From Vicugna vicugna (Eukaryota), in NCBI GenBank assembly GCA_013265495.1, contig MU058198.1:6525779-6589778 (forward strand): DNA of 64,000 nt, given 5' to 3'. Positions within the stretch are counted from its first letter, which is position 1. The number at the start of each line of letters is the position of its first letter. Position numbers and translations under genes: made by a program. The notes beneath the pieces are model-generated. The model was given only the letters and a program-made list of their open reading frames with translations, made no database searches and was not told the origin of the DNA. Positions 3,131-62,800 of the stretch are shown here, one piece after another.

Positions 3131-4273
3131 GGCCTCCCAGACAAGCCCACCAAGGTAGGAATAGTGTCCGCCCCCTTGATTGCTGTTTGCCCAGTGCTCA
3201 GGGCAGTGCCTGGCATGTAGCCGGTGCTCAATAAACAATTTTTGAAGCAAACAAATTCTACTCAGATTCCCCCTCTCCCATCCTCTTCCTATACTCAATA
3301 GAATACACCGGGGGCTGCATGTGGTCCATCTCTGGGTCCCATAGGGGCTGTATGTGGTTCTTTTCAGTGGGTGGGTAGGTGGGGGTTTCCCACAGGAAGC
3401 CAGTGATGGAACTAGACCCAGAGTCGGTGATAGTAATTGCTTCTTAAGGGAACATAGTGGGGACCAAGGAGTGGGTGGGTAAGTAAAGGGGTCCTAGGGA
3501 TGTTTCCTGGAGCTCAGAGCCCTGCCCATCACAGGGGTGCTGCCCTGAGCCCCTAGTCTCCCCCAGCTCCCTGGAGATGCGCGTGGCATGTTCCAGCGGC
3601 CAGGGCAATCTGACCAAGATCCAGATGCCTGTTGAGTGCTTCACAGACACGGGTGGCATCTGAGGGTCCAGTGGGAGGCAAGCCAGGCTCAGGCAGGGGT
3701 GGAATTCAGATACCGCCTTCCTTCTCTCTGCTCCCGTGGCCACCCGCCCACGGCCTCCCAGCTCTGGCAGGGAAGGAGTTAACCTCCCGGCTTCTCTGCG
3801 TGAATGTGGAGCTATTAATACCCACAGCCAAGCCGGTCTGCCAGAGCAGCCACTGGAGTCAGAGGAGCAGGGAGCAGAGGGAGCTCCAGTCAGAGCCGGA
3901 GCTGCAGCCAGGGCTCCAGGGACCAGAACTTTTCTCGGGGACAGCGTGGGCACTGCACCTCACCTGGTCCTCGCCCACCTTTCACCTTCAGGTCCTGACC
4001 CTCCTCCCTCCTGGAGGCCACCCGTGCCACCCACCACCCCAGCAGGGGAGAACAAACTTTCTTAGGGAAATCACCTCCACTGCAGGGACGGGGAGGAGCA
4101 GGCGGCCGGACAGACAGATGAACAGATGGACAGGGCATCTGCGAGCCTGTCCTCCCAGGCCTGCCTCTGAGAGTCAGCAGCAGAGTGAGCAGCTGAGGGG
4201 CCTCAGGCACCACGAGGGGCAGCGAGGGGCCCTGCCGGACCTTTGTCCGCCAGCCAGCCACTTCTGAGTCCCG

Positions 4274-4656
4274 GTGGCTGGCAGCTGCTTCCCCAGGCCC
4301 AGCCCCGTGGCTGGCAGCCCTGCGGGTCAGGATAGCAGTTCCCATCAGCCAGAGCCACAGGCTCTTCCACCCACCGAGGCGACGGGTAACCTGAGTGAAA
4401 AGGCACAGGTGGCAGGTGGGCAGGCGCGGGGTCCTGAGGCCAATGGGCTACTGACCCTGGAGCACGCTGGCTCGGGGACCCCTGCCCAGACAAGAGACGA
4501 TGCTGCTGAGGCCACCACCAGCCACCCCTGCCCTGTCCTGGAGCTGCCTCCAGCCTGGCCCCTGGGCTGTGGAACTGAGGATGTGCCAGCCTTCTGCTTC
4601 ATCTGTTTCCACAAGGAGGAGGAGGAGGAGCTGCTGGAAGAGGTCCCACTGCAGAG
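4274..4656 (+). other. SBK1: Candidate distal alternative SBK1 exon, in frame with the kinase ORF (5' boundary unknown)
   Basis: Stop-free frame from 4268 to the donor GAG|GTCAGT (GT at 4657), phase 2. Joining to 44578 gives ...[14 protein letters not shown] in frame. Confidence 0.55.
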
Positions 4657-7600
4657 GTCAGTGCTTGTGGTGGGCAGTGGGTGGGCAGGGTGAGGCCACA
4701 GGGCTGGGATCAGGGCCCCTCAGGTAGTCCTGCTTCCGAGTTTCTCTGTCTGTCCACTCCTGACCACCCACTACCACCACCCTGGTCAGACTCTCAGATC
4801 TTTCACCTGGGTGTCATCATAGCCTCCTCCCTGGGACCCTCCTATCCTTCCCAATTGTGGTCATGTTCCCCCCTGCTCAGAGTTCTCCATGGCTCCTGGC
4901 TCCCATAGGATGAAGTCAACACTCAGGTCGGCATTCAAGGCTTGTGTGACCAGGCCAGCCCCACCCACCTCATCTCGCTCTGCTCTCTTGTATTCACCCC
5001 CAGACTTCCCATCCCCTGGCCCCCCTCCATCCAGGCCCAGCTGCAATACCTCCTCCTCCAGGAAGCCCTCTAGGCAGCCCCTGACCCTTCCCAAGCTGAG
5101 AGCCACCTTTCCCCCCTGCCTGGCACTGACACTTAACAGTGTTCAATTTTTGTTGAATGAATGAGTGGAAATGTCTGCACATGCTTATGCATGTGTGTAT
5201 GAATGTGTGGGTATAATAGAAAGTGAGGGGAGGGGAATGGAGGTTTGTGCGGCTGTATGATCGGGTATTTGGGGGTGAGTGTATGTGATTGTGAGTATGT
5301 GCATGTGTTTATGGCAGTGGGTGTGAGTTCTGTGTACTTCTGTGAGGGAGGGGTTGTGCACTGTGCTCAGGTTGGGGGTTCATGCCCTAGAGATCATTGT
5401 CCCTTTTGCCAGATCTCCCCACCCCCACCTTCAGGGAAACCCATGCCCCAGCCAAGTGCATTTCCCAAGCTGTGACCACAGACTCCGGGAATAGATGGAA
5501 TGTCTGCAGGGGAGACAGGGGTCACCTCTGCTCCAGCCCAGCCCGCCCACGCCTCCATCATCGCCTGAGTCAGCACTGCCCTGGGTGGGGAGAAGGGCAG
5601 GCTCAGGGCCAGCCTAGATATGCCCTCCAGGCCCCTTGCTGGAGGGCGGGGATATGGGCTTCTGCAGCCTAGGACAGCTTCCTCCCTGAATCTCACTGTT
5701 GGACTTGGATCAGTCATTTCCCCTCTGTGGGCCTCTGTCTCCTCCCCTGTGAAAGGGGGGGATGCTCCCTGTATGGCTGTCAGCTCGTTCGGCAGTGACT
5801 GAACAGTCAGAGAGCACCAGGGCCCAAGATCTCATGGGGTCCAGCCTGCTGGGAGACCTGCCAGCGAACAGATCAGTTTTACAGAGTGGTGGGCGCCTTG
5901 GTGGGCGCGGGTGTACTGTGCTCAGGGAGTAAGGCCGGGGTCTGACCCAGCTCTGCCCGCAGGAGCCCTAGGAGACCCTGCAGATCTGTCTTAAAGTATG
6001 GGTCCTCTTCCAGGTGGTGAGTGGAGTTAAAGAACGGGCATTCCAGGCAGCAGGTCTGGCAAGAGCAAAGGCTTGGTGGTATGAGAAAGAAATTGTGTGG
6101 GCATGGTGGACATGGGGCTGGCAGGGCCACAGGGGCCAGATCACCAGGGGCCTTGACTGCTGAGCCAAGGACTCGATCTGTAAGCAATGGAGTGAATGAT
6201 GGGGAGGGCTCGAAGCAAAATGGGGCTGACTTACGTGATTCAGTGAGATCACAGGTGTGGAAGTGTTTCTCAAACTCCTAAGCAATGAACTCCTAAGAGC
6301 ATCACTATTTTCACAACAGGAGCTCAAAATCCTTGTTGAATGAATGAATATGATGTGGGGAGGCAGGACATTAGAATCACTGAGTTGACTATTTAAAAAT
6401 ACACACTTCTAGGCCCTGCCCTGGAGACTTTGTGGCCTCAAGTGTTAGAGGGGATGGATGTGTAATTTTAATCAGCCCCTCCCCACCCCCCGCAGCTTGA
6501 GCAAACCAGCCTTTGGGAAACCCCAGAATGAGATCAGGCAGCCAGGAGATCCTGCCCTCTTCCCTCATTCCCCCATCTCCCCCTCCAACTTTGGGGACTC
6601 CCCCTGTAGGGCATGCCCCTCTGCCTCCTGCCCCAGCGGTATGGTGGCCTGTGTTTACAGAACCCAGTCTCCTTTCCAGTTGGTGGGCGCTGGCCCTTTA
6701 AGACTTCAAGAGGGGACACTGCCAGGCTGGGCAGAGACAGTGACCACAGGTGCCAGGTGGTGAAGCTAAAAATACTGAGTGATGTGGACGCTCAGGCTGC
6801 AGGAGCCAGGCAGGGCTAGCAGGGAAGGTGGGAGGGAAGGCTCCGGAGTGTTTCTTTCCTACTGGAGGAGGGGCAGTGGGCAGTGAGGTTTGGTGGGGTC
6901 ACCTTGGGGGTTTAGAGGAGCCTGCCAGCCAACCCCTCTCCTCCCAGCCTTTCTCCAGCCCCTGGAAGGTGCCAGGATTCACTCCCAATAGCTGCCGTCT
7001 TGAGCAGCCCCAGCGTATTGCTAATTCTGCTTCTCTGGGACTCTGGGGAAGTCATGTCTTCTCTTTGAGCCTCTGTAAAATTAAAGAATTGGACTAGCTT
7101 GGGCACCTTTAGGGACAGAGAAGCCATGTGGGGTGCAGACAACCAATTCACTCATTTGTGAATGCAACAAATTTTCCCCGAGTCCACCTGGGGACTGGAT
7201 GCTGAGGCCACTGCAATGAACAGGAAACAGGCACTGCCTGGGAAGAGCCCAGTGAGGACATGCAGCACACAGGAACGATTACAATGTGCTGTCACTGAGG
7301 TGTGAACATCGTGCCCTCAGCTTCTGTTGTGAGATGATGCAAGAAACTGCCCCACTGAGAACACGCCCGCATTTGATGAACACTTGTCAGCAAAAGCATC
7401 ACCCAACAGCCACCTCCATCTGGTGCTTGAATGTGTGTGTGTAACTAAGATGAGGCTCCATGCCTTAACAAACAGGCCCGGAACCATGCGGCTTCACACC
7501 ACAGAGCCTCCTGTCCTGCTCGTGGAAAGTCTAGAGGGGGCTGGGTGTGGGGGAGACTTTGCTCCACTCAGTCCTTTGGGGACCCAGGCTCCTCCCACCT

Positions 7601-9942: not shown

Positions 9943-11039
9943 GTATGAATCAGCAAGAAATATTACATTGAAAACGGAGACAATAGCCACACAGTTTTGG
10001 AATCTAGAAAGCAGAGGAACGGGTGGTAAGCGGTGTGGTGGTCAAAGACCTCGCACCTCAAGTGAACTCTACGTTGGGCATGAGAAAAACCAAGGGGCAC
10101 CACAGTTTCCCTCTTCAAAACCCCAAAAGGCGCACATAATAATGACCTAAGTACCCATGGAAATGGGAGTAAAGCTGGGGCCAAAAACAGGAGGACTGGT
10201 CTAAGAAGGGCGTTAAATTCTCAGATTTCCTTTTCCGCTCAGCACGGCTGGGCAGCGGCCCCTCCCTGACCCTGACAAAGACCGAAGGCGTATTCTGCAG
10301 AGAGGATAAAACACAGGGTCTCTGCACTGAGGACATGGCACCGCGAGGGGGAGGGGGGAGATCTGCACCCGACTGGCGGGATTATTTGGATATTGCATCC
10401 TGAATGTGGGGAGCCCTGCCCCCGCCCCCATCACTTTGGGGCCTTCTTCCCCCACTAGGCTCCCAGAACGATGAAGTCTGGTCTCAACTCTCGAGGCAGG
10501 ACCCTGCCCAGCTCACTCCCTTCAATCTCTGAATATATTAACGATGGGTATTTTGTTCTTGCTGTTCTCTCCTTTCCTGTTTTAATTTTCTTCTCTCCTT
10601 GCATGGTTTGTTTCCTCCAAAAATTTTTTTTTCCTGTTTGTATTCGTTCTTTTATCCTAGAGTCCAACTCTCCAAGAAAATGACACCTAAATAGGTTGGC
10701 ATCAAGGATTTCCCACTGAAACAGCCCAACTCGAATTCTCTGTATTAACCCCCTGAGTCAGCCCAACTTCCCAACTTGCTTGGATAAAATTGTATTTTCA
10801 TATTCTTTAATCAAGGCATAATTATAGCAAAATGCAAAGGACTTAAGTGGTCAGTTTAATGAGTTTTGACAAATGTAGATGCCTGCGTAACCCACACCTC
10901 AATCAAGATATTGCCGTGGGAAGTAACATACTCAGAGTTTTAGCATGCCCCAGTCAATACCCACCACGCACACAGGCAACCACCATTCTATCAGCTCCTC
11001 AACTCTCTTAACTATGAGCTGATAACCAGGGACCATCAG

Positions 11040-11950
11040 CATTTGAAAAAAACCTCCAATACATGGGGCAGAACAAAAACAGAAAAAGAGAATTTGGAGG
11101 AAACAGAATATGCAGGGAAAAGAAAACTTTAAGACAAAACTATTATTACTATATTCAGAGATTTAGGAAAATATATTGCAACTATGAAACAAAAACTAGA
11201 TGATTTTGAAAGAAAAAACCTCTAAGAATGAACAAAACAATTCTTAAAAATTAAGAATATCATGGGGTTGCGGGTATAGCTAAGTTGTAGAGCCCATGCT
11301 TAACGTACACAAGGTCCTGGGTTCGATCCCCAATACCTCAACCAAAAACAAAAACAAAAGAAATAAAGTTGTAAAATTAAAAAAAAAAAAGAATATCATA
11401 GCAGAAATGGAAAATTTATTTAAAAGAGTTAGGACTGGAGTCAGCAAACGACAGCCTGTGGGCCAAATCCAGCCTGTCACCTGTTTTTTAAATAAAGTTT
11501 TATTGAAACACCGCTACACCCATTCATGTACTGCCTATGACTGCTTTCACATTGGTGAAATTTCCAATCCTGAATTTCCAAACTGAAAGGACCCACTGTG
11601 CCCAACCAAAGGATAAAAATAGACCTACAGCGTTAAATTTCAGAACACAGGGACAAGAAGATAATTCTACCAGATTCTACAAAGGATCAAGAAACAGAAT
11701 GGCATCAGACTTCTCAGTAGCAATTTTGGAAACCAGAAGTCAATGGAGCAGTTTTCAAAAGTATGAAAGAAAGTTATTTTAAGCCTAGAATTCTACACCT
11801 AGCCAAACCATTAATAAAGTAGAAAAAAAGATATTTTCAGATTTACCAGGGCTCAAAAAAGTTATCTCCCACACACCCTTTCTTAAGAAAGCTACTAGAG
11901 GATGTGTTCCACTAAAACAAGGGAGTAAACCAAGAAAGAGTAGGACTTGG
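11040..11950 (+). mobile_element. Degenerate L1 ORF1-region relic, interrupted by a SINE and a MER58-like fragment (~11435-11550)
   Basis: A-rich; peptide RMASDFSVAILETRSQW resembles L1 ORF1p; CAGCCTGTGGGCCAAATCCAGCC...AATAAAGTTTTATTG resembles MER58. Confidence 0.65.
11264..11388 (+). mobile_element. tRNA-derived SINE
   Basis: GGTATAGCTAAGTTGTAG...GGTTCGATCCCC; TSD AAGAATATCAT at 11253-11263 and 11389-11399. Confidence 0.9.
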
Positions 11951-12289
11951 GATCCAGGAAACAGGGGAGCCAAAACAAGAGAGAGGGGAAGGGCGTCTCC
12001 CAGATGTTGGTGAAGGGAGCTCCCAGGGCAGCGTCTCTGGGCAGCAGGCCTAGAAGACAGGCAGTTCACATTGGCATAAGTCAGAAGGTTCTAGAAAAGA
12101 TTTCTTCAAGGAGATGAAACTGATAGACTACCTAATGTATTTAAACGTTTGTGAGATTTACACAACTAAGACAGAGTGTGGGTTAAATTAGACATAAACA
12201 CCTAGAAAAACAGGGCCTACCCCTAAGAAAAGACTTATTAAACCCAGGAAACAAAACTTTCGGGCAGAAAAGGGAAATTAAAATTTTTT

Positions 12290-13395
12290 AACTTCTGCTC
12301 TAAGACACTATTAAGAGAATGAGAAAATAAGCCAGAGAATGGGAGAAAAATATTTGCAAGAGTCATCTGATTCTGATATAGAACCGTATAACTGATAAAG
12401 GACTGTTAAACAAAGTGTACAAAGAACTCGTAAAACTCAACAATAAGAAAATTAACAACCCAATTTAAAAAATGGGCCAAAGATCTGAACAATCACTTCA
12501 CCAAAGATGAAATACAGATGGCAAATAAGCACATAAAAGATGCTCAACATCATATGCTCTTTGGAAATAGCAAATTAAAACAACAATGAGATATCACTAC
12601 ACACTTACCAGAACGACTAAAATCCAAAACACTGACAGCGCCAAATGCTGGGGAGGATATGAAGCAACGGGTATTCATTGCTGTGGGGATGCAAAATGGT
12701 ACAGCCACTTTGGAAGACAGGCTGGCAGTTTCTTACAAAGCTAAACACAGTCTTACCTACCATCCAACAAATAGCATTCTTATTCATCATTGCCAAAAAC
12801 TTGGATGCATCTAATATGTCCTTCAATAGCCAATGGATAAACTATGATATAGTCATACAATGGAATATTATTTAGTGATAAAAAAGAAACGAGCTACCAA
12901 GTCATAAGGAGGAATAGAAGAATCTTTAGTGCATATGGCTAGGTGAAAGAAGCAAATCCGAAAAGGCTACAAACTACACGACTTCAAATATATGACATTC
13001 TGAAAAAGTCAAAACTATAGAGACAGTAGAAAGATCAGCGGTTGCCAGAGGCTTGTGGGGAGGGAGGAGGGAAGGATGAATAGACAGAGCACAGGGGATT
13101 TTTAGGGCAGTGAAACTATTTTATGTGATACCATAATGGTGCGTCTATGACAACATGCATTTGTCAAAACCCATAGATACACAACAGAATGAGTCCTCTT
13201 GTAAACTATGGACTTCAGTTAATGTTAGTGCATCAGTATTGGTTCAGCAGTTGTAACAAGTAAACCACAATAATACAAGATGCTAATATAGGGGGAAATG
13301 AGGAGGGGTGTACATGGGAACTCTCTGTACTTTCTGCTCAGTTGTTCTATAAACCTAAAACGACTCCAAAAAAGTAAAGTCTATGATAAACAAGA
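12290..13395 (+). mobile_element. Old L1 fragment (end of ORF2 plus 3'UTR, L1M-type)
   Basis: Peptide VQPLWKTGWQFL at ~12700 resembles the L1 ORF2p C-terminus; typical A-rich L1M 3'UTR motifs follow. Confidence 0.85.
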
Positions 13396-13473
13396 AAAAA
13401 AAGGGAAAGAGATCATAGTATTCCACTGAAAGTTGTAAGTAATGTTTCCACAATATGTAAACACTACCAATCT

Positions 13474-13621
13474 TCTTTTTTTAATTGAAGTGTTGTCAGT
13501 TTACAATGTTGTGTCAATTTCTGGTGTAGAGCATGTTTCAGTCATGCATAGACATGTATATATTCGTATCCATATTCTTTTTCATTAGAGGTTACTACGA
13601 GATATTGAATAGAGTTCCCTG
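13474..13621 (-). mobile_element. 5'-truncated L1 3' end
   Basis: T-tail followed by L1 3'UTR reverse complement; 14-bp TSD AACACTACCAATCT at 13460-13473 and 13622-13635. Confidence 0.88.
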
Positions 13622-14289
13622 AACACTACCAATCTAACCAATATTACAATGCAACCAATATTATGATGTTCTGGGTGGATGGGAGACAGGAAGTGGAGGG
13701 GAATTGACATCAGGGAGCTAAATCCTCATCTTCCAAAGTGGGAAATAGAGAGGCAAAGCCTAAAACTAGAAAAAGCAGAACCTAAAACACACTATGAAGG
13801 AAACATAGGGGTGAAAACTACTAATAATTGGGAATTGTTGTCCCTAAGAAATGGGAAATGGGAGTGGGGGGCTGCCCATGTTTCTGGATTCTGAAATGTG
13901 AGCATGTTTAATGTAAATAAAAAATTAAAACCATATTTACAAAAGGAAAGTGGAACTAGCCATGAGAACCAAAGAGAAAGTGGGAGGTTGTAGAGGAAGA
14001 TTTACTGTGCAGAGGGTCGAAGAAAGGGATGGAGACACGTGGTGAAGGGGAGAGGTGATCCTGGAGAAAGGAGGAGCGGGTGCAGGGGAATCCTGAAGAA
14101 ACCAGGACCCCAGAGAGGGGATGGCCTCAGGAGAAAGGCGTCCTCCTGCTGAAGCAGTTGGAAGGAGCTGGGGGAGGTTCGTGCTCTGATGGCGGGAGCC
14201 AATGGAACTGCATCTGGTCCATCTGTTTTCTCAGTGACACATGAACCACGGTTTGAGGGGAGAGGAGAAGGTGGGGAGGGTCTTCCAAG

Positions 14290-26077: not shown

Positions 26078-27089
26078 GACTTGGATTCTTTTTTTTAAAG
26101 TTTAGATAGAGGCTGGAGGGAGACAAAGTAGGAAATAAGGCAGTATTCTCCCTGGAAGAGGTTGTAAACTGATGGCCCATGGGCCAGATTTGACCCCCAA
26201 AAATGTTTCAGTTGGTCCACTCAGTATTTCTGAATTTGGGAAACTAGTTTCAAACATTTAGAAGTTGGAAGATTTTATGCTAGAATATGGATTTTCTGCA
26301 TGAAGTCATCTGTCCACACAGGGCCCATCATGCTCCCGGTTGTTTCATCTCCATCATTCCCTATCACCTTACACCTGATCCCAGTCGCTTATAAGTACTT
26401 GAGTTTGCAATCCCTGGCCCTAAAACTTCTAGAAACAGTCGGGGGTGGGGGCTGGGAAGAGTATGCTGGGTGGACAAATAGGGAAAGGGGCAGGGTGTGT
26501 TAGGGGCTTTCTTCTCAGAGAAATAGTGTGAGGGAGGCTGCATGGATGCGGCTGAGCATCTCCACCCTCACCCACCCAACTTCCTTCCAGGTCACCAGTT
26601 TCCAGTTAACAGACAATGGTCCTTCATACCTGGGTAGTGCTTTTGCACATGCTGCTGCCTAGAATCCCCTTTCCTCCCTTCTATGTCGTGAGCATCGTGT
26701 TTCCCAGCTGCATCCCATGACTAGACACTGCCTGTTTATAACAGGGGTCAAAAACGCAACCTGGGCGGAACCCTCAAGGCCCCAGTTTAGAACGTCTTCC
26801 CTGAGTAGTCTGTTAGTTCAGATGGGTGCATAGATGAATGGATGGAAGGGTTTCTATCTGATTGCATAGCTAGATATTTCCCTCCTTGAAAAAGAGACAG
26901 GCTCCGCCCCGACAAGAAGACTGGGACAGTCTGGGGCAGTCTAGTCCCGCAGGGGCCAAGAAGCTGGACCAGGTGACCCTCTCAGACTCCCCCGAGTCCT
27001 CTCTAACCTCGTTCTCGCCCCCTTGTGGGCTCTGACCTAGAAAAGACGGGGTTGGGAGGAGAGAGAAGCAGTCCACGGGCACTAGGACC

Positions 27090-28340
27090 CAGAGCGGGAG
27101 GAAGGCGGGGTGGGGGCGCCGCGCGGGGAGAATCTGCGCCCAGCGGCGCGCGGCAGGAGGGCGCGGCGGGAGGGCGAGCGCGCGCCGAGATTAGTGCGCG
27201 TGCGCGAGAGCGCGCGCCAAGCGGGGCGGACAAAGGGGCGGGCGGCGGCGCGCGAGCCGGAGGGCGGAGCCACGAGCCAGGCGGGCAGGTGCGCGCAGGC
27301 CGGAGGGCGGAGCCGCGATGCCGCGATGGAGCGCAGCCCCGGCGGGCGCCGGGGCCGGGGCCCGAGCACCAGGCAGAACGCGAGCCGGAGCCGCAGCCAG
27401 AGCCCGGGCCAGGCCGGGGTCCGGGACCGCAGGGCCGGGCTGCTCGTAGCGGCGGCGACGGAGGCCCCCAGCGGCTGAGGGGCTTCCTCCTAGCTCCTGC
27501 CGGTGGCCGGAACTCAGCAAGCCCCCGCAGCCGGGGAGCGCGGGGGTCCCCCCACCACATCCAGGACCCAGAGACACCCAGGAAAGCGGGGTGCCTCTCC
27601 AGATCCAACACAGAGCGACTCCCCAGCTGGGGAAAGCGGAGACTACCTCCGTATTCAGAAGACAGCAACCTCCCTGCGGTACTGAGAAGACTCCCCCTCT
27701 TCAGTCTGGGCCCCCACAAGACCTAGAAGGCAGTGACCCCCCTATCTGGGATTGTGGGGACCCCTTCTCAAGATCCTGCTCACTACAACTCCACACCTCA
27801 AGACACGAAGACCCAGCTCAGAACGTCCCTAGATCAGGGGTCTTAGACCCCCCCAAATTACGGTACACTGAAACCCCAAATCTAGGGACCCGTGGACAGC
27901 AAGAGCTATCCGTCACCAGCAAGAGGCCTCGGGGAGCACCACCCCCCCGCCCCCGCCAAAGCTGCGGGACCGGGCCGACTGAGCCCCTCGCAGCTCCCTT
28001 CTCATCCCAGCCCATGGTTGTGGCGCCCTGAGCCCTCCGGGCCGGGCTGAGGACGAAAACCGAGACGGCGCCCAGGCCCCCTGCCGCGGCGTCCCCGCGG
28101 CCCCAGCCCAGGTAAGCAGGGCCCAGGTGAGGGGCAGCAGGTGAGTGGCCGCCAAGGTCCCGCAGGTGGGGAAGGAAGTATAGGGTGCGCGCTGCCCCCT
28201 CCCCAGCGTCGCCATGGAGCCGAGGCTGAAGGACGTCTCTTTGTGTCTCGCTTGGAGGAGCCGCCCCCTCCTCCTCTCCCTTCCCCCACCCCACATTCTA
28301 GTCCTGGGGCTTGGACGCAGCTTTCTGGCCCCGCGGGGGA
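27090..28340. promoter_or_regulatory. CpG island / SBK1 proximal promoter with GC boxes
   Basis: Very high GC and CpG density compared with CpG-depleted flanks; several GGGCGG boxes around 27220-27310; no recognisable repeats. Confidence 0.9.
27300..28111 (+). other. SBK1: SBK1 non-coding first exon (5'UTR); 5' end approximate
   Basis: Lies inside the only promoter-like CpG island upstream of the coding exons and ends at a strong donor CAG|GTAAGC (GT at 28112). The first coding exon has only 7 nt of UTR, so an upstream exon is required. Confidence 0.75.
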
Positions 28341-43100: not shown

Positions 43101-44584
43101 GCTGGGTCGTGCAGAGAGGGAAGAGGAAGGCAGAGGGAGGAGAAGAGGGTTTGGGCCTGGAAGGGGAGCAGCCAGACCAGGGTGAAGATGCCAGGCTCAC
43201 CCCTGCCCATGGCCTCCAGCCGTGCTCAGCAAGAGAGGGTGAGAACACATCCACACTCAACACTTCGGGAGGGGGAGTTCACTGTACCAGGCACCAAGGC
43301 TCCATGCTGTTGACCCTTAGGGAAAGGATACTATTACATCCTTTTTATAAAATGGGGAAACTGAGGCACAAAGACATGAAGTAACTCGCACGAGGACATC
43401 TAGCTAGTGAGTCAGAACTGGGATTCAAACTTGGGCAGGGTAGGACTGGGGGCAAAGGGAGTGAGGGCAGAGGAGCTGCACCAGGAGGCAGTGCCCCAGG
43501 GTAAGCCTAGAGAGGGTTCGGCGCTGGCCTCTGCTGCTGGCGCGCACACAGACATGGACACACGGACACCTGCTCCTGGAGGCTCAGCTCCCTGGCCTAA
43601 GCCTCCCCCCATTAAACAGACAAGAAGAGCAGGCCCCAGATGGATGCTCACTGTCACCCAGCCCTGAGCTCTCCCTACAGCAGCTCTCTGCACCCCCAGC
43701 ACCAACTGGAGACAAAGTCAGTACCCCTGAGGGGGTGACCAGTGCGGGTGGACACTGAAGGGGTCAGTCAGGCCGTGAAGGTGGAGGGTGAGGGTGGTAG
43801 AGGGCTGGGTCTTTGTGGAACAGGTGTTCTGTCCTTGAGTCCAGGGGGGCTGGGCAGGACCCTGGGACCGCAGCTGCAGTTGTGTGTAGCTGAGCTGGGG
43901 TTGTGTTGTCTGTGATTGGGGGAGGGATTATAAGGCTGTGGTGGGTGTGCGGCCACACCTGCACCGCCCTGCCAGAGGCTGAGGCTCCTGTCTGAGGCTC
44001 CTGTGGCTGAGGTGTTTGATCCTGTGACCCCTGCCCTCAGACCGCACCTGCCCCACCTCTGCCTTATTTTCTCTACAGCCCACGTCACCTTTAATCACAG
44101 TATATCATTCATGCGTTCACTGTATATTGTCCATTTCCACCCTAGAACCTAAGTCCTGTTGAGGGCCGGAGTCTGATCTGTGTGTTCGGTGCTGTGTACC
44201 CAGGGCTCCAAACAGCACCTGGCAAACGGCAGGTGCTGATCAATACTTGTGAATGGGAGCACTCATGTGAACTCATGTGTGTCTGTGTGTGAAATAAATA
44301 CGTGTGCCTTCTCTGGCATTGTGTCTGGATAATAGCATGAGACAGACCAACGGTTCCCAAGTAGGGGCTGGGGAGCAGTGACTGTGTCTCCAGGGAGTGC
44401 TGGCTCAAGGCTGTCCCTGAAGCTTTTGGGTAAAGGTGATGCAGTGAAGATGCTTTTCGCCCCCTCGTGGTCATCTTAGGCCAGGCATCGGGCCCAGCCC
44501 TGGGGATCCTGGGCCCTGGGGAGGGAGGAGAGGGCCCTGGCCTGATGTCACACTCCATGCCACACCCCCCACACCAGGGAGAAG

Positions 44585-44810
44585 ATGAGCGTGGGCTGCC
44601 CAGAGCCCGAGCCACCCCACTCCCTGCCCTGCTGTGGGCCAGGGACCACCCCTGGGCTGGGTGCAGGCGTGCCCCTCCTCACTGAAGACATGCAGGCACT
44701 GACCCTCCGCACACTGGCTGCGAGTGACGTCACCAAGCACTATGAACTCGTCCGGGAGCTGGGCAAGGGCACCTATGGGAAAGTTGATCTGGTAGCCTAC
44801 AAGGGCACAG
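44585..44810 (+). CDS. SBK1: SBK1 first coding exon (exon starts at 44578, 7 nt before the ATG); N-terminus and kinase Gly-rich loop
   Basis: Translates [20 protein letters not shown]...[23 protein letters not shown] (GxGxYG loop). Acceptor cacaccAG|G at 44576-44577, donor CAG|GTGAGT at 44811. 226 coding nt, phase 1. Confidence 0.96.
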
Positions 44811-46178
44811 GTGAGTGTCTGTGGGTAGCCAGTTCTAAGACAGGAGTGGGGACTTGGCTGGGGCTTTCTACAGGGGCCAGGAGGCCATCAGGGAGGCAGA
44901 GTTAGTGGACCGGATGGAGAACATGTAGTCTGAAGTGGCCCAGGGAAGAGGGAATCAGGCAGATGGAACAGGGCGAAATCTCTGGGCAGAGGATCTAGAC
45001 TGGAGGGTGGGCTACTTTGGGGCCACATAAGTGCCTTTGGGAGAGCCAAGGGGATGCACCCAGGGACATGTGAAGCTCAGGGGAGAAGTCAGTGCTGGCC
45101 GTGGTGTCTGGGGAATCACCAGCATATCAGTGATAGCTGCCATCAGGGAGGTGGTCTGAGCTGACAGGGGGTCCTCGGGAAGAAGGCACCATACTTACAA
45201 TGGGGTGGGAGGTGACCTGTGAGGTCAGTGTGGCCACCTCCATTTCTCAGGTCATTGAGGACGCTGACACCCAAAGAGATTCAGTCACTCAGCCAAGGTC
45301 ATGCAGCTACAGAGGGTGTGAGCTAGAATGACCCCAGGGGTCAGCTCCAGAGCCTTCTCACTTAGCCACTGAACTTGATGCCTCCCTCACAGGAGTGCCA
45401 ACTCAGCCAGCCAGGGATGGGGGCAGCATGAGCGCCCATGGCTGCACACAGTGGGGGCAGGGGGCAGTGGGAGTTAACACTGGACATGGGGTCACCTGAG
45501 CTTTGCCACTTGCTAGCTGTGTGACCTTGGGCAAGTGACTTAACTTCTCTATGCCTAGGTTTCCTCCTTTGTAAAAAAGGTAGCATTAATGCCCAGCTGA
45601 TAGGGTCATTATGAGGAGTGAGTTGTGAATGTGAAGGGCAGAAGGCGGGGACCATGGTGCATAAGTGTGGTACATAAGTGCACACATGCATCACACAGCC
45701 AGGAACCCACATGGGTACAGATGCCCACTCAAGCTCAGAGTCCAGGACATGTGCCCAGCAGACCCTCACCTCTCCGAGCCTAGTTCCTTCTTATTCATTC
45801 ATCCATTTAACAAACATTTCTTGAGCACCTACTCTGTACCAGACTCTGCTGAAGGCACTGGAGATACAGCAACGAACAAGACAAAGGTTCCTGCGCTCAG
45901 GGAGCTGCCTCTAGCTGGGGGAGACAGACAAAATAAGCACACAGTATGTCAGGAAGAAAAGGGGAGGGTGGAGGGAACAACAGGCTCTCCTTACCACCCT
46001 CCTCATTCAGGACAGCGGGCTGGGTATAGAAGACCAGGTTGACCCCTCACTTGCTGCATGGCCTTTGACAAGTCCTTTTGTCTCTCTAGGCCTCAGCTGA
46101 GGACAGACAGACATGGGTATGTGAGGGGCAGGGGCGCAGGAAGGGGGGTCTTCACCACTGTCACTGTTGCCCCACCAG

Positions 46179-46381
46179 GCACGAAGATGGCACTGAAGTT
46201 TGTAAACAAGAGCAAAACCAAGCTGAAGAACTTCCTGCGGGAGGTGAGCATCACGAACAGCCTCTCCTCCAGCCCCTTCATTATCAAGGTCTTCGACGTG
46301 GTTTTTGAGACAGAGGACTGCTACGTCTTCGCCCAGGAGTACGCGCCCGCTGGGGACCTGTTCGATATCATTCCTCCTCAG
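46179..46381 (+). CDS. SBK1: SBK1 second coding exon (catalytic Lys, helix C, hinge)
   Basis: Translates (G)[67 protein letters not shown]. Acceptor ccaccAG at 46177-46178, donor CAG|GTACCT at 46382. 203 nt; cumulative 429 nt, phase 0. Confidence 0.96.
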
Positions 46382-47148: not shown

Positions 47149-47994
47149 GTGGGGCTCCCTGAGGACACGGTGAAGCGCTGCGTGCAGCAGCTGGGCCTGG
47201 CGCTGGACTTCATGCACGGGCGGCAGCTGGTGCACCGCGACATCAAGCCGGAGAACGTGCTGCTCTTCGACCGCGAGTGCCGCCGCGTGAAGCTGGCCGA
47301 CTTCGGCATGACGCGCCGCGTGGGCTGCCGCGTGAAGCGGGTCAGCGGCACCATCCCGTACACGGCGCCCGAGGTGTGCCAGGCGGGCCGTGCCGACGGC
47401 TTCGCGGTGGACACGGGCGTGGACGTGTGGGCCTTCGGCGTGCTCATCTTCTGCGTGCTCACCGGCAACTTCCCATGGGAGGCGGCGTCGGGCGCCGACG
47501 CCTTCTTCGAGGAGTTCGTGCGCTGGCAGCGGGGCCGCCTGCCGGGGCTGCCGTCGCAGTGGCGCCGCTTCACCGAGCCGGCGCTGCGCATGTTCCAGCG
47601 GCTCCTGGCGCTCGAGCCCGAGCGCCGCGGGCCCGCCAAGGAGGTCTTCCGCTTCCTCAAGCACGAGCTCACGTCCGAGCTGCGGCGCCGGCCCTCGCAC
47701 CGCGCGCGCAAGCCCGCCGGGGACCGCCCGCCGGCCGCCGGGCCGCTGCGCCTCGAGGCGCCCGGGCCGCTCAAGCGGACGGTGCTGACCGAGAGCGGCA
47801 GCGGCTCCCGGCCCGCGCCCCCCGCCGTCGGGCCGGGCCCCGTCCCCGTCCCCGTGCCAGTCCCGGTCCCCGTGCCCGTGCCCGTGCCCGAGCCCGGCCT
47901 GGCCCCCCCGGGCCCCCCCGGCAGGACCGACGGCCGCCCGGACAAGAGTAAAGGGCAGGTGGTGCTGGCCACGGCCATCGAGATCTGCGTCTGA
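47149..47994 (+). CDS. SBK1: SBK1 last coding exon (C-lobe, PV-repeat tail, stop)
   Basis: Contains [20 protein letters not shown] and DVWAFG kinase motifs, a proline-rich (PV)8 tail, and ends [11 protein letters not shown]. Acceptor ccgcAG at 47147-47148. Total CDS 226+203+846=1275 nt = 424 aa. Confidence 0.97.
47839..47886 (+). repeat. Coding hexamer repeat encoding (Pro-Val)8
   Basis: CCN-GTN units: ccc gtc ccc gtc ccc gtg cca gtc ccg gtc ccc gtg ccc gtg ccc gtg. Confidence 0.95.
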
Positions 47995-56012: not shown

Positions 56013-59000
56013 TGGGGAGAAGTTGGGGGGCAGAGCAGACTGGTGTGGCTGCAGCATAACTGAATAGGGGCTGCTCTCGTCAGGCCCTTTGGGTTGTTTA
56101 AGGACCTTGGATTCTATCCTGAGTGCATGAGGAAGCCCTGGAAGATTTTAAGCAGGGTGTGACATGATCTGATTTTTTTTTTAATTCATAGCTTTAAAAA
56201 AAGATGTTTTCCTTTTAAGGCTTGGCAAAATGGATGACATAGAAAAAGGTTCATGGACAAGCACAGGAGAATTGCCAATGTCTGCACCAGGAAAGCATAA
56301 TTATCAAAGTATAAACCAGAAGCTGGCTCATGTGTTGATCACTCTGAATAAACCTAGATTCTTTGGTTCCCAAAAGCTATGTGAAAACAAAAACTCATAA
56401 TCACGTTCAGATAATAATAATAACACAGCTGCACAGCCGCTGAGGCACCAGCCAGACCAATTAAATCAGATTCCTGGCACCAGGATTTATTCAAAGAACC
56501 CCAGATGATTCTTACTTACAGTCCGACAGAGCCTGCAGTCCTGGGTGATGAGTGCTAGCCTGTGACAGCTCAGCTCCCAGAGTCCCTGAGAACAAGGCCA
56601 ACCCTTGGTGCGCATAGAAACACTAAACTGCAAGGACCCGTCGTTGCACCCTGGACCTCTCCCAAGGACAGACCAAGGAGGGCCAAGGCCAAGAAAACCT
56701 ACCCTCTGAGATTTTAAGACCTCTCACTTTTTCTTCTCATCTTCACTTAATTAACTTACCTAATTATAATGATCCATGTACATTATAAAGAATTAAAATA
56801 ATGTATAAGAGTATAAAAAAGAAAGTAAAGTCACCTAGAATTCAACTACCCCGAAACAGCTTCCATTTTGCTTGGTGACCACCTTTCAGGTATTCCTTTA
56901 AGAGGCTAGATGCACAAACACATAGAGATGTACGTTGTTGGCAGGGTCATAGCACTGTTTACCACGGGCAGTCTTCACTCCTCTCTGGGCTTACCTCCCA
57001 CCCTGTCTCTCCCCTCTCCATCCCTTCCCAGGTAACCAAAGCCAACAATGCAGTGTGTCGCTTCCTGTACCTCCTCCATCTTATATAACCACGAGGCACA
57101 TATATACATAGAAAGGAGACTGCTTTTTTTTTTTCTTTTTACAAATCCACATTCCACACTTCTCTCTGTTTTGCTTTCTGTTTTGCTTTCTTCACTTAAG
57201 AACCCTGATGGAATCCCTCAGCTGGGCAGCTGGGATGGTTCTACCAAATTCATTCTGTCTCCCAACCCCATAGTGATTCAAGGGGTGGATCCTTCATTCA
57301 ACCATCTCGCCTTGGGTGGACATTCACTTTGTTTCCAGTTTTTGCTGCCACAATCCCTGCTGCAATAGCCATCCTTTAAAAAGTTATTGGTGCAGAAAAA
57401 ATTTGAAGGATAATGGCTGAAAACTTTCTAAATTTGATGAAAAAGATGAATCTGTCCATCCAAGAATCTTAGAGAACTTCACAAAGACACATAAACCCAG
57501 AGCTGAGCCATTTAGTGAATTAAGATTACCTTTCCTTTCTGTACTTTTTGTTTTCCTGGTGTTAGTAATATTTTTCATTTGCTTAAAAAAAATCTAGGAA
57601 CATATTCATCCAACTGCAACTCTCCACCTGTTGTTTAAATTGTTTCTCAAGATGATCAGTTAGATTCAGTGGTTTACAAATTTAATCTTCTTAAAGAAAA
57701 TCTCCGCTGGAGCCCCCTGCCCTGCTCCCATGTGAACCGACTGCTCTCTAGATCTGTTGCTGTGTCTTTCTGGGGTCTGTCTGGTTTCATCATTGCCCCA
57801 AGGAGTCCCTTCCCCTCTTGTCTGTGTTGGAGCTCTTATTCCTGCAGTGAATTATGTTTCTCTTTCTTGATTTCCTCTCTTGTTTTAGTGGAGCATATTC
57901 TTCTGAAGTCACCCATAAGCATTCATAAGAAGTAAAATTTTTCAGACCTTGCAAAAAATCTTGCAAACATTTGTATGGGATATTGCCAGATTGCTTTCTA
58001 AAAGGGCTGTTAACAGTTTGCATTTCCACCAGCAATATACAAGAGTAGGTTCCCCCATCTCTCAAACCCCACCAATTCTTTTTTTTTTTTTTTTGCCTAC
58101 CTGCTGGGATAAAGTGCCTTTAACTTGCCTTTTCCTGCTTGCTACTGAGGTTGATCATCTCCAGTTGATTTATTTGTCATTTGTATTTGCTCCTCTGTGA
58201 ATTGTCTCTTTGTACCCTTTGCCATTTTTCTTTGGGGCTGTTTTGGTTGTTTTTTGGGGTTTTTTTTTTTGTTTTTTTGTTTTTCTGTTTTTTTGCCATC
58301 AGTCTGCAAGTATTGTCTTCGCAGAACAGACCTGGATCATTCATCTGCCATATTTGCAAATACAAATCCTCCTTTACCTATGCTTACAGTATCTTCCTAT
58401 AGTTTTTCCTCTAATTTTAACATAGATTCATCTAAAAGATTTTTGGTAGCCTCTTGGCTTCTTTTCTTGGTTTAATTTTTTTTCTTCCCAAACCGTAGAT
58501 CATAAGTCTAGTTTCCTATGCTTTCTTCTAAGACTTTTATTAAGCCTTTAATTCATCTGTAATTTACTTTTGCTTATGGTAGTGATCCAATTTTACTTCC
58601 TTATTTCTTCCAAATAGTCAGTTGTGCTGTCACCTATTGCTAAATAAACTACCCGCTTCTGATTGATTTGCAATTCCACTGTTGTTATGATTTAAATTCC
58701 TGTAGGTAATGGGATCTATTTTTGGGGTGTCTACTTAGTTGCCCTGGTGCAGATTTTTGACATTTTCCACGTGAATGCGTATATCAAAGTTCATTATATT
58801 AAGTTATCTAATTTTTAAAAGGCCCCATCAGTATTTCAATGGGAATTGCATGTAAGGACATTCATGTTTTCTCTGATGTTTTAAGTCATCCCATTTTCTG
58901 ATGCTAACTCTTTCTCTTTGTCCTTCAACACATGTTTTTTCTTCACTAAGGTCCTGCATTTTCTCTCTTGAATTTATCCCCTAATAATATAAATGAGAAT

Positions 59001-59220
59001 GAAATATTTTCCTTTTTATATTTCTACCAATGATTTCTTACAATATCGAGTTATCTCTTCTCCAATAATGAGCATTTTGTTTTTTAAATCCTGGTATATT
59101 TGATAGACCCTCCAAAATACTGTTTTGTTTTGATTCTAAGGGAAATGGCTTTAGTATTTAGAATGATGTTTGCTGTTAGGTTTCGGCAGAGAACTTTTAT
59201 CATACTTAAGCAATTTATTC

Positions 59221-59346
59221 CCTTTTTTTGTTTTTTGTGAGGAGAGATAATTAGGCTTATTTATTATTTTTTTTAATGGCGATACTAGGGATTGAACACA
59301 GGACCTCATGCATGCTAAGCACATACTCTACCACTGAGCTATACCC
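59221..59346 (-). mobile_element. tRNA-derived SINE
   Basis: Reverse-complement head; TSD ATTTATTC at 59213-59220 and 59347-59354. Confidence 0.85.
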
Positions 59347-59668
59347 ATTTATTCTCATTTTTTTAGTAGTTGTGTGGGAAAAGCTATTGAATTTTTTCAA
59401 CATCAATTGATATGATCACGTGGTTACTCTTTTAGTGTGGTGTAAAGAATTATGTTGATCAATTACTTGATATTCCCTGTCTTGCATTCCCAAAAGAAAG
59501 CTCTATTTGCTCAAAGTATGTTATTCTTTTTAAATACAATTGTATTTTACTTGTTAACATTTTATTTGGAATGCTTACATCCAAATCAGAGAGAGAATGG
59601 TCTGCAATTTATTGGCTTGTGGTTTTTTGTTGTTATAACTTGTTCGCTGTTTCACTCTAGCAGATTTT

Positions 59669-59807
59669 GGAGAGGGGAGGGAGGTAATTAGTTTTTTTGT
59701 TTGTTTGTTTGTTTTTTATTTTTTAGAGGAGGTACTGGGGATTGAACGCAGGACCTTGTGCATGCAAAGCATGTGTTCTACCAGTTTGAGCTATACCGCC
59801 CCCCTAT
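59669..59807 (-). mobile_element. tRNA-derived SINE
   Basis: Reverse-complement head; TSD CAGATTTT at 59661-59668 and 59808-59815. Confidence 0.85.
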
Positions 59808-62800
59808 CAGATTTTTATATTAAGGTCACGCTGCCTTCAAAACATAAATTGGAGAGTTTCTATCTTTTCAGTGACCTAGAATAGTTTAAGTTACTTTGGA
59901 ATTACCTTTATTTTTATCAGTTTAAACTATCTGAAGATTAGCTAAATTTGTCTTTGAAATTGTCACGGCCAGTGCCTTTATAAACAATTATATATACACA
60001 TATAAAAGGTGATGTAACATAAAATATAAGTTAGGAGACAGAGAACAAAGACCCAAGAGCCAAGTTATAGTACCTTTATAGATTACACATCTGTGTCACC
60101 AAGGTTCACCTGGGCAGCTTTTCAGGGTTGGTTTCTCAGCTGTAAGTAGCTTTGTGTGAGGTTTCAATAAGATAAAAGCTGTGCAGTGTCTGCAAATATT
60201 CCACAAACGTGCCTCTTCCTTGTCCCCTCCCCCTCCCCCTAACAGAAGGCTGCACTTTGTTGTGTGAGCAACGGGGAGCCACTGCAGGTCTTTGAGGTGG
60301 GGAGTTACCACAATCGGATAAAGCGCTATAGGCAGGGTTTAGTACTGGCTGGTGGGTTTAATTAGTCTGAGGTTACAGGTGAGGAAACTGAGGCACAGAG
60401 AGGGGAATTTCCTTGCCCAGGTTCACATGGCGACAAAGTAACGGTGCTAGAATCCGAACACGGGTCTCTCTAACTCCAGGCCCCACAGTCACAGGTTCTA
60501 TCCACCCAACCCCAGAATCTGGGAGAAACCCCAAACCCTCCATAGCCCACAGTGCCACCAGCTTCTCGGGAGGGACAGGCGTCACCCACCTTGTGCCCTG
60601 GCACCTTCTGTACCTGCCCCCGCATGAGTCACTCGCCCGAGCCAGAGTGAAAGAAGCCACCGCCTGGAGGAGTTCTCTGTGTGAGTGCATTTCGGGTTCT
60701 GTCTTAGTCACCACTTCTCTTGGTTCCCACCCCTCCCCCGACTGCCGGGAGCCTCTGTATCCCCAGCCAGAGCTGCCAGTGCCACCCCCCGTGGGTGGGG
60801 CTGGCGAGGCCGGGTCCTGAGATGTGGGCAGGGTGCCTGGGGGACACCTATAACCATTACTGTCCTCCCTCAACTAAGGGAAAGCAGTGACCCTGCCAGG
60901 CAAACACAGCCTCAGTCCTAATAACAGCTGACGCTTCTGGAGTGCTGACTTCAGCCAGACCCTGCTCAAAGCCCTTTGCATCGAAGAAGACATTTAATCC
61001 TCCTAAAAGCCCATGAAGTACTATTGTCCCTATTTTATGGATGAAGCAACTGAGGCTCAGAGAGGGGAAGTGACTTGCCCAAAGTCACAGAGCCAGCAAT
61101 GGACAGAGCAGGGAACCCAACCCAGGCACTCTGTGGCCCGAGTCCATGCACAGACTCACTGCATGATCCTGCCTCTCTGGCCTGCTGCTTTCCTCTGGGC
61201 CTCCCCTCCACAAGCAGCATCTAGCACCAGCACTGCCCAAGGGCCCTGGGTCCCTGCCCTGGACCTCGACCTGCCCTTGGAGCTCAGCCCAGCCAGAGCC
61301 CCTGAGAATGGGTGTATGGCTCCCCCAGGCTGCCAGGCAGGTCAGCCTCCAGGACTTTGTAGGTAGTTTCCTTTGCTTGGAACACCCTCTTCCTTCTCTC
61401 CACTGGACCAATACCCTCTCTGGTACCATTCAGTGGCAGTGCACCTTCTCTGGGAAGCCCTCTGGGATATGTTCCCATAGAACCTTAAACTTCCCCTAGT
61501 GAGTCTCAAATGTGTCGCTTGCTTGCTGTGACCTTGGCAAATTACTGACTCTCTCTAAGCCTCAGTTTATTCATCTATAAAATGGGTCCAACGATATCTC
61601 CAAGGGTTGTTGCAAAGATGAAGAGATAAGCTGGGCAACACGCTTATGACAGGACCTGGCCCACGGTGGATGCTCCTTAAATGAGCTTGTTTTATAGCAT
61701 TGCTTTGTGTACACTGGGTTATAATTGTGTGGGTCGCTCTCTCCGACTGGACTGAGTGCCCTGCAAGGGAAGAAACGGTGTCCTGTTTCCATGCCTGTCC
61801 CAGAGCCCAGCACAGGGCCTGCCCTGGAGGACATCTCAATACATGTTTGATTTATTTGAATGAACGACAGAGGGTCCAGGTCCCTGAAGGTGAATGGTGA
61901 CTCAGGGTTGGTGCCCAGCACAGCACTCACCGAATGGCAGGCCAGGCTGAGCCTGGATTGGGGGAAGGGGAGCTGCCTCTTCCTGGACGCATGATCTTGT
62001 GCAAGTCACTTCAATTAACCTTTCTGCAAGTCAGTGCCTTCGTTGGCCAAGTGGGGATAACAGTAGTCCTACCTCTAGGGGCTCTTATGAGGATTAACCA
62101 AATGGCTATTTATAAAGCACTTAAGGCAGGGCTGGCCACAGGAATGCTGCATGATAGTTGTTGAAACACAAATAAGCAGCTGCACCCCCTTCAAGTTTCC
62201 ACATTTGGCCAGCTCTCACTCCCTGCCCCGGCCACCTCAAGGTCTGGGTCACAAGGAGCTCACTTCCCCGGCCACCTCCTCCGCCATGCCATGCCCTGGT
62301 TATGCCATGACCCTTAAGGCCCTGCTCCCAGCAGAGCCTCTGGTCCCAGCTTCCGGGGCTGGGTGTCCAGCTCCACACCAGATACTCTGTGCAGGAGAAA
62401 ATCCCCAGAATCCAGGAGCAGAAGAAAATGGTAGAACCTTGCTTTCCAAACTGAATTTTGTTGACTTGACTCCCCCTCCCCACCCCCCACCGCCTCTGAC
62501 AACATCATCGAGACATGTTCAGGGAAATCCAGTCCGAACTGGTGATTTTTAGTCACATTGAAGACTCTGAGTTCCAGCCATTTTATGACAGTGGTCACGA
62601 GATTCTTCCCCCATCAGCTGCCTCTGGGCTGGGCCAGGGGCCCAAGGCCACATGGCCGGTGAGGGGCGGGTAGGAGCCCCCTGAAGCTACTGGGCATCAG
62701 GGGGAAACAACCAGTTGGACTGAGCTGAGGCCTGGCTGGTACTTCTGTCCCACCCCCTCCCACCTGCCCCAGTTGGGAGGAAGAGCAGGAGCGCTGTGGT

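Follow-up and report, generated by a model that had tools for sequence, protein, structure and literature searches.

A conserved distal exon of SBK1 may give placental mammals a non-AUG-initiated, lipid-anchored long form of the kinase

The tyrosine kinase Hck occurs as p61 and p59 forms, the long one being acylated and initiated at a CUG codon of the same exon. Here we examine a long form of SBK1, a Ser/Thr kinase gene contained in a 64,000-nucleotide stretch of the Vicugna vicugna genome (assembly GCA_013265495.1, contig MU058198.1, positions 6,525,779 to 6,589,778), hereafter the window, to which all coordinates refer on the forward strand. In human, Mudge et al. 2019 (PMC6886504) labelled a cluster at chr16:28259225-28259497 'SBK1 potential non-ATG start'; the top-ranked PhyloCSF region of this cluster has rank 499, and two further PhyloCSF regions lie upstream of it. 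The same source left upstream splicing or non-ATG use open for 12 such genes. Its curators judged such clusters highly likely to be genuine, and its SBK1 rows mark the entry as still under investigation, naming neither a codon nor a function. Of the genes on that 2019 list, USP19 and CCDC8 received non-AUG models in PMC9789052, where 30 genes were given such models and SBK1 was not one of them. The GENCODE curators left the SBK1 start undetermined in 2019; the new reading presented here is initiation at ACG 4382, with predicted N-myristoylation of the Gly that follows it.

An earlier note on this window, made from the letters alone, had proposed that a distal exon splices in frame onto SBK1, and every coordinate that it gave for the frame and splice sites proved correct. 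In the frame of ATG 4118, stops are found at 3611, 4265 (TGA) and 4691, and this ATG is the only one in frame between 3500 and 4700. The exon ends at 4656 with the donor GAG/GTCAGT, and the SBK1 exon 2 acceptor at 44578 reads CAG/GGAGAAGATG. When the two exons are joined across 39.9 kb, the frame runs uninterrupted into the 424-amino-acid kinase (coding exons 44578-44810, 46179-46381 and 47149-47994); read from ACG 4382 it adds 94 amino acids, giving 518 in total, stop-free to the annotated AUG. The extensions of 130 and 69 amino acids calculated earlier for starts at GTG 4274 and CTG 4457 were reproduced on the spliced frame. Two results back the kinase assignment: the cattle long model P0022 gives a Pkinase domain at E 1e-49, and identity was found to proteins named SBK1. 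The distal exon is single-copy in the genome at the DNA and the protein level (next protein match, E 0.08), and the same genome comparison found neither a paralog nor a repeat origin. By a crude consensus count, 99 donors between 300 and 44500 score as high as the one at 4656, and 3 of these 99 are preceded by a phase-2 frame open for 90 codons or more, one of the three being the same frame. Sequence alone is modest evidence for a distal coding exon, and it is conservation that raises the exon above chance. Words sampled from 4268-4700 were present at 45-57% in four RNA runs of one study, as unaligned matches in which splicing is not read; runs with small shares (X5-X14) were left out of the evidence.

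Protein searches with the 129-amino-acid frame returned 7 longer proteins among 1119 candidates, the best match, at 99% identity, carrying the name Camelus ferus, and those with its last 101 amino acids returned 25 proteins among 37 candidates. The exon was conserved in 105 of 121 proteins compared, from placental mammals, and the junction peptide to SBK1 exon 2 was present in 10 of 24 proteins read. These ten gene models, from nine species (panda with two, donkey, horse, cattle, vaquita, blue whale, two Saccopteryx bats and colugo), have the same exon and the same junction peptide as found here. The distal exon and its SBK1 junction are already in public gene models, as the earlier note had thought possible, and the isoform itself is not new. 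Of 94 genomic homologs that read through the donor, 72 carry R-S-V over it and diverge past it, 7 have R-E-K, 2 have another reading and 13 were left unparsed. The cysteines at 4568, 4595 and 4604 are each kept in 82 of 82 rows, substitutions in the distal frame are conservative (I/V, F/L, D/E, K/R), and every placental group sampled maintains the frame; triplet indels occur only past Lys7 (P0118, P0022-24). Since the rows come from gene callers, frame-broken orthologs would be under-sampled among them. A metagenome scan gave no ortholog DNA among 493 candidates, and one of 380 candidates in a second scan showed a 46% match over 26 residues, taken as chance. Among 15 distant matches, 13 were of mammalian type and none was recognised as a non-mammalian form of the exon; P0055 and P0056 were rejected as chance similarities of repeat proteins. 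The human cluster of Mudge et al. is orthologous, its 84-residue supplementary peptide aligning to 4403-4654 with no net indel, and its top-ranked region likely matches 4520..4654. Spanning 91 codons, the cluster would probably start at 4382 or 4379, on the assumption that its end falls on the last full codon or on the one before. We are highly confident that the distal exon is genuine.

An N-terminally extended SBK1, the central proposal of the earlier note, is thus supported, most likely through non-AUG initiation. No conserved in-frame AUG accounts for the extension: ATG 4118 is blocked and unconserved, and internal AUGs are lineage-specific. First, coding-type conservation is seen downstream of ACG 4382 and the frame is lost upstream of it, and published PhyloCSF agrees. 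Upstream of about 4352, homologs match different camel frames depending on the lineage, many short rows scoring too low to assign: elephant P0004 and P0051 match frame +2 (scores 132 and 52 versus at most 38), rodent-type P0053, P0062, P0102 and P0005 match frame +1, and goat matches frame 0. Because the frame shifts among elephant, rodents and ungulates here, we discarded ATG 4118, GTG 4274 and the idea that an ancestral AUG had been broken by TGA 4265; elephant moreover has Leu at the Met of 4118. The further candidate GTG 4409 was abandoned as well, since 5 of 76 rows have A, G or D where Val stands here. Second, when 68 covering rows were reduced to 24 lineage-level rows below 93% identity, 0 of 10 positions were invariant in 4352-4381 (mean top frequency 0.82), as against 4 of 7 in 4382-4402 (T1, G2, N3 and K7, each 24/24). 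Third, Thr occupies the 4382 position in 51/51 rows reaching that far, and the residue ahead of it is always A, E or K, so that -3 stays a purine. Finally, homolog P0041 (15 contigs) is frame-shifted up to A-T-G-N and its near-twin P0103 is not, with a length difference of 5 nucleotides; the shift is best read as a 5-nucleotide tandem duplication, which would imply GCG-ACG. Two antisense-frame homologs, called on the opposite strand (2 matches of 132 candidates), both force G at 4384 and 4385 and both keep CTG 4391 and CTG 4457; their third- versus first-position changes number 10 versus 8 and 15 versus 4, and one of them has synonymous changes at N3 and E6. Taking together the lineage-dependent upstream frame, the onset of invariance, the purine at -3 and these two kinds of homologs, we regard ACG 4382 as the best start, and translation probably begins there. 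Non-AUG initiation had been foreseen in the earlier note, whose list of starts overlooked ACG 4382, CTG 4391 and the out-of-frame ATGs 4443, 4500 and 4581. Six of the public models start at Lys (AAG, 4400), six codons past ACG, and look 5'-incomplete, AAG being essentially unrecognised as a start codon in the account of PMC9789052; the other four start at lineage-specific AUGs, and none has an M-G-N start.

The main rival to ACG 4382 is CTG 4391 (GTG in some rodents), which would add 91 amino acids and exclude the conserved Gly2. According to PMC5666671, CUG usually initiates better than any other near-cognate codon; at 4391 the A at -3 does not vary, the position alternates between L and V only, gene callers start there in 6 rows, and the codon is retained in both antisense-frame homologs. 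Nevertheless, initiation there would leave the invariant T and G upstream unexplained, residue 2 would vary (S, G, R, N), and +4 is A in most species, and we consider this start unlikely.

Less probable again is an upstream coding exon with a normal AUG spliced into the distal exon, an option named by Mudge et al. (PMC6886504). Elephant models enter near 4066, one of them from a CpG island about 23 kb upstream, and an ab initio-type camel model (P0002) enters at 4379. However, entry at 4066 would cross the lineage-specific frameshifts, the AG at 4378 is a GAG with few T and lies upstream of the P0041 insertion, later AGs are preceded by purine-rich tracts, and a conserved alternative N-terminus was seen in no homolog found by protein searches. 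As for the 5' end itself, elephant P0004 and P0009 have sequence in common beginning with the residue that aligns to 4066, and the first exon of P0009 matches the CpG island L015:1050-2100, some 19 kb before the window begins. Beyond this island an Xpo1-domain gene, presumably XPO6, is encoded on the minus strand; the island therefore looks like a divergent promoter and may feed the distal SBK1 exon; for the distal mRNA, a local promoter and spliced non-coding leaders are both possible. Two elephant RefSeq models leave the 4656 donor to nearby sequence and not to SBK1; past the donor they resemble about 4820-4900 by eye, which suggests a short alternative product without the kinase.

Initiation further in, at CTG 4457 or at lineage AUGs in the positions of 4562 (human, colugo), 4583 (Saccopteryx) and 4631 (panda), is improbable. 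In its favour, both antisense-frame homologs keep the context ACC-CTG-G, L-L-T-L does not vary, the lineage AUGs serve as starts in RefSeq models, and the top-ranked PhyloCSF region is the 3'-most. On the other hand, four invariant residues in 4382-4402 and seven in 4403-4459 stand at or before CTG 4457, two more PhyloCSF regions lie upstream, and the lineage AUGs are absent from this genome. CTG 4457, one of the starts listed in the earlier note, is a conserved codon that lies 25 codons inside the constrained region. At 4562-4564, the human peptide, colugo P0018 and P0042 have Met in place of the Leu seen here; the in-frame AUG of these lineages gives an M-G-C start, which is unlikely to be myristoylated because of acidic residues at positions 6-7. 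A conserved non-coding or regulatory role for the distal exon, with an incidental open frame, is very improbable: promoters and enhancers can yield false PhyloCSF regions, as PMC6886504 warns, and the peptide lacks Pfam, Atlas or fold support, but the maintained frame, triplet indels, conservative exchanges, third-position bias, divergence right past the donor and the curators' opinion of such clusters all speak for coding.

Read from ACG 4382, the predicted N-terminus is M-G-N-L-S-E-K. Gly2 is found in 51/51 rows, counting as position 2 only given the ACG start, and Lys7 in 62/62 rows. In N-myristoyltransferase (NMT) substrates, myristate is attached to Gly2, and Lys7 is held in an acidic pocket of NMT1 (PMC7048800); the preference described in PMC8689648 is GXXXS(K/R), with Ser at position 6. 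Since position 6 departs from this preference, we do not file long SBK1 as an NMT substrate but only predict that it acts like one. LRATD2 starts with M-G-N-Q-V-E-K and was predicted negative, yet it was validated by loss of label in the G2A mutant and by an NMT inhibitor (PMC8689648). N-myristoylation of long SBK1 at Gly2 is a tentative prediction, at somewhat less than even odds, and palmitoylation of the three invariant cysteines is speculative. The effect on membrane targeting suggested in the earlier note is plausible, the likely signal being the N-terminal Gly2 and not the Cys/acidic block alone. A dileucine sorting motif in the poly-Glu/LL stretch was rejected, as roughly half of the rows have only one of the two Leu. 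The extension contains no Pfam domain (a sub-threshold DUF5954 match only), and an Atlas search with it gave no usable match. AlphaFold was uninformative for the cattle long model without an alignment (predicted local distance difference test, pLDDT, 38) and showed no secondary structure for the extension with 30 sequences (pLDDT 55, predicted TM-score 0.11), which is compatible with a mostly disordered extension.

We propose that the distal exon would splice onto SBK1 exon 2, where the join is in frame here and in the public models, and that scanning ribosomes would initiate inefficiently at ACG 4382 in its strong context, giving a kinase with a mostly disordered N-terminal extension. Removal of Met would expose Gly2 for acylation by N-myristoyltransferase, with Lys7 in the acidic pocket, and the three cysteines might add palmitate. 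Ribosomes past ACG would meet out-of-frame AUGs at 4500 and 4581, whose +1 upstream open reading frame (uORF) has a stop overlapping the main SBK1 AUG once spliced, ending 4 nucleotides after the A of ATG 44585. Because this uORF ends on the main AUG, the distal mRNA should make little short form and favour the long one. A three-codon out-of-frame uORF at 4443-4454, whose ATG is absent in both antisense-frame homologs, looks lineage-specific. The choice of promoter and first exon would then switch SBK1 between the short form and a lipid-anchored long form. The canonical first exon itself has three upstream AUGs (27318-27480 and 28014-28031; uORFs of 43, 50 and 5 codons), and the short form may therefore also be translationally damped. 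In this favoured model, a leaky ACG start leading to a myristoylated, possibly palmitoylated and membrane-targeted SBK1, we assign a probability of about 0.6 to the ACG start and a lower one to the myristoylation. The wider suggestion that placental mammals have a second SBK1 whose anchor depends on the conserved ACG of a dedicated exon, with uORFs silencing the short form on that mRNA, is more doubtful.

Several points weigh against this model. Conservation over the ten residues ahead of ACG still reaches 82%, which leaves the edge sharp in invariance only, and DNA-level support for ACG consists of two homologs and one inference. The public junction models are predictions, maybe projected from one annotation. 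Upstream AUGs at 4118 and 4126 would precede ACG if the mRNA begins upstream of 4118, and no stable RNA hairpin was found downstream of ACG (5/5 windows versus shuffles; z -0.19 to 0.33). Position 6 is Glu in 21/24 rows where a small residue is preferred, and the PROSITE-type myristoylation pattern fits only 5/66 rows. ACG is a weak initiator according to PMC5666671 and PMC9789052. SBK1 was not found in the main text and searched supplements of PMC9789052 (files 4 and 13 outside the search), nor in the searched supplements of the non-AUG/5'UTR survey PMC11317171 or of the myristoyl-proteomics study PMC10696250. Full-text literature searches, whose scope excluded subscription papers, bioRxiv supplements and database notes, gave no pairing of SBK1 with PhyloCSF or non-AUG initiation, and its co-mentions with myristoylation were incidental, as judged by titles and the start of abstracts.

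Table 1. Features of the SBK1 locus in the window and public long SBK1 models
Feature	Position	Strand	Remarks
Possible upstream acceptor	4064..4066	+	AG at 4064-4065; apparent entry site of two elephant RefSeq models
ATG-TGA frame, 49 codons	4118..4267	+	Outside kinase; at most a lineage-specific uORF
Distal SBK1 exon, coding part in favoured model	4382..4656	+	91 codons + phase-2 AG; open frame; conserved; human PhyloCSF cluster 273 nt
ACG, proposed near-cognate start	4382..4384	+	G at -3, G at +4 (GCG-ACG-G); inferred
G-N-L-S-E-K, predicted N-myristoylation signal (Gly2, Asn3, Lys7)	4385..4402	+	G, N, K invariant in 24/24 lineage-level rows; position 6 not Ser
CTG, rival near-cognate start	4391..4393	+	A at -3; Leu or Val in homologs
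Out-of-frame uORF	4500..4656	+	ATG 4500, also ATG 4581; 55 and 28 codons
Pro/Cys/aromatic block and poly-Glu run	4520..4654	+	Cys at 4568, 4595, 4604 invariant, candidate palmitoylation sites
Splice donor GTCAGT of distal exon	4657..4662	+	Reads GAG/GTCAGT; exon end 4656
CpG island and canonical non-coding first exon of SBK1	27001..28111	+	CpG obs/exp 0.78; donor at 28111; leader with in-frame stops
SBK1 exon 2	44578..44810	+	Shared acceptor; main AUG at 44585
SBK1 exon 3	46179..46381	+	
SBK1 exon 4, coding part up to TGA	47149..47994	+	
UniRef long SBK1 models			F7BT29 (horse), A0AAA9TDL1 (cattle), A0A8C9BQJ0, A0A8C0D777, A0A9L0IZ87, A0A7N5JQP7
RefSeq long SBK1 models			XP_066131652, XP_066239216, XP_062956916, XP_034525449

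Elsewhere in the gene (Table 1), the Saccopteryx models P0012, P0014 and P0016 have 12 extra residues ahead of exon 3, which fits an extended acceptor (46150-46178), and similar sequence stands in frame at 46150-46178 here. A Pro-Val dipeptide repeat in the C-terminal tail (about 47860-47910) is longer here than in the cattle and horse models. By eye, 320-430 holds a tRNA-derived SINE-like element with an A-rich tail, and the AT-rich blocks at 11001-14000 and 57001-60000 have strand skew of opposite sign, typical of LINE fragments.

With ACG 4382 named, the question of the start is reducible to one point mutation, and the reading also predicts a function, in that this kinase, little studied so far, would have a membrane-anchored form. 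If the reading is true, the SBK1 annotation would gain six codons and variants in the distal exon would become interpretable. Myristoylome predictions based on AUG starts, together with current gene models that begin six codons late, would miss long SBK1; non-AUG starts would then be a place to seek missed myristoylated proteins, hinting at a wider hidden class of proteoforms.

Compared with the GENCODE non-AUG extensions (USP19 at AUA, CCDC8 at CUG, and POGZ, TARBP2 and KAT7 at ACG; PMC9789052), SBK1 would have the same combination of a near-cognate start, an in-frame extension and coding-type conservation. It differs from them in that the extension lies on its own distal exon, so that exon choice and non-AUG use would be coupled. 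With Hck it has in common a kinase with a predicted non-AUG, acylated long form, whereas Hck is a tyrosine kinase using CUG on the same exon. The non-consensus NMT substrate LRATD2/FAM84B is an unrelated protein with an AUG start, and its likeness to SBK1 spans seven residues only, in which it has the M-G-N-x-x-E-K N-terminus in common with predicted long SBK1.

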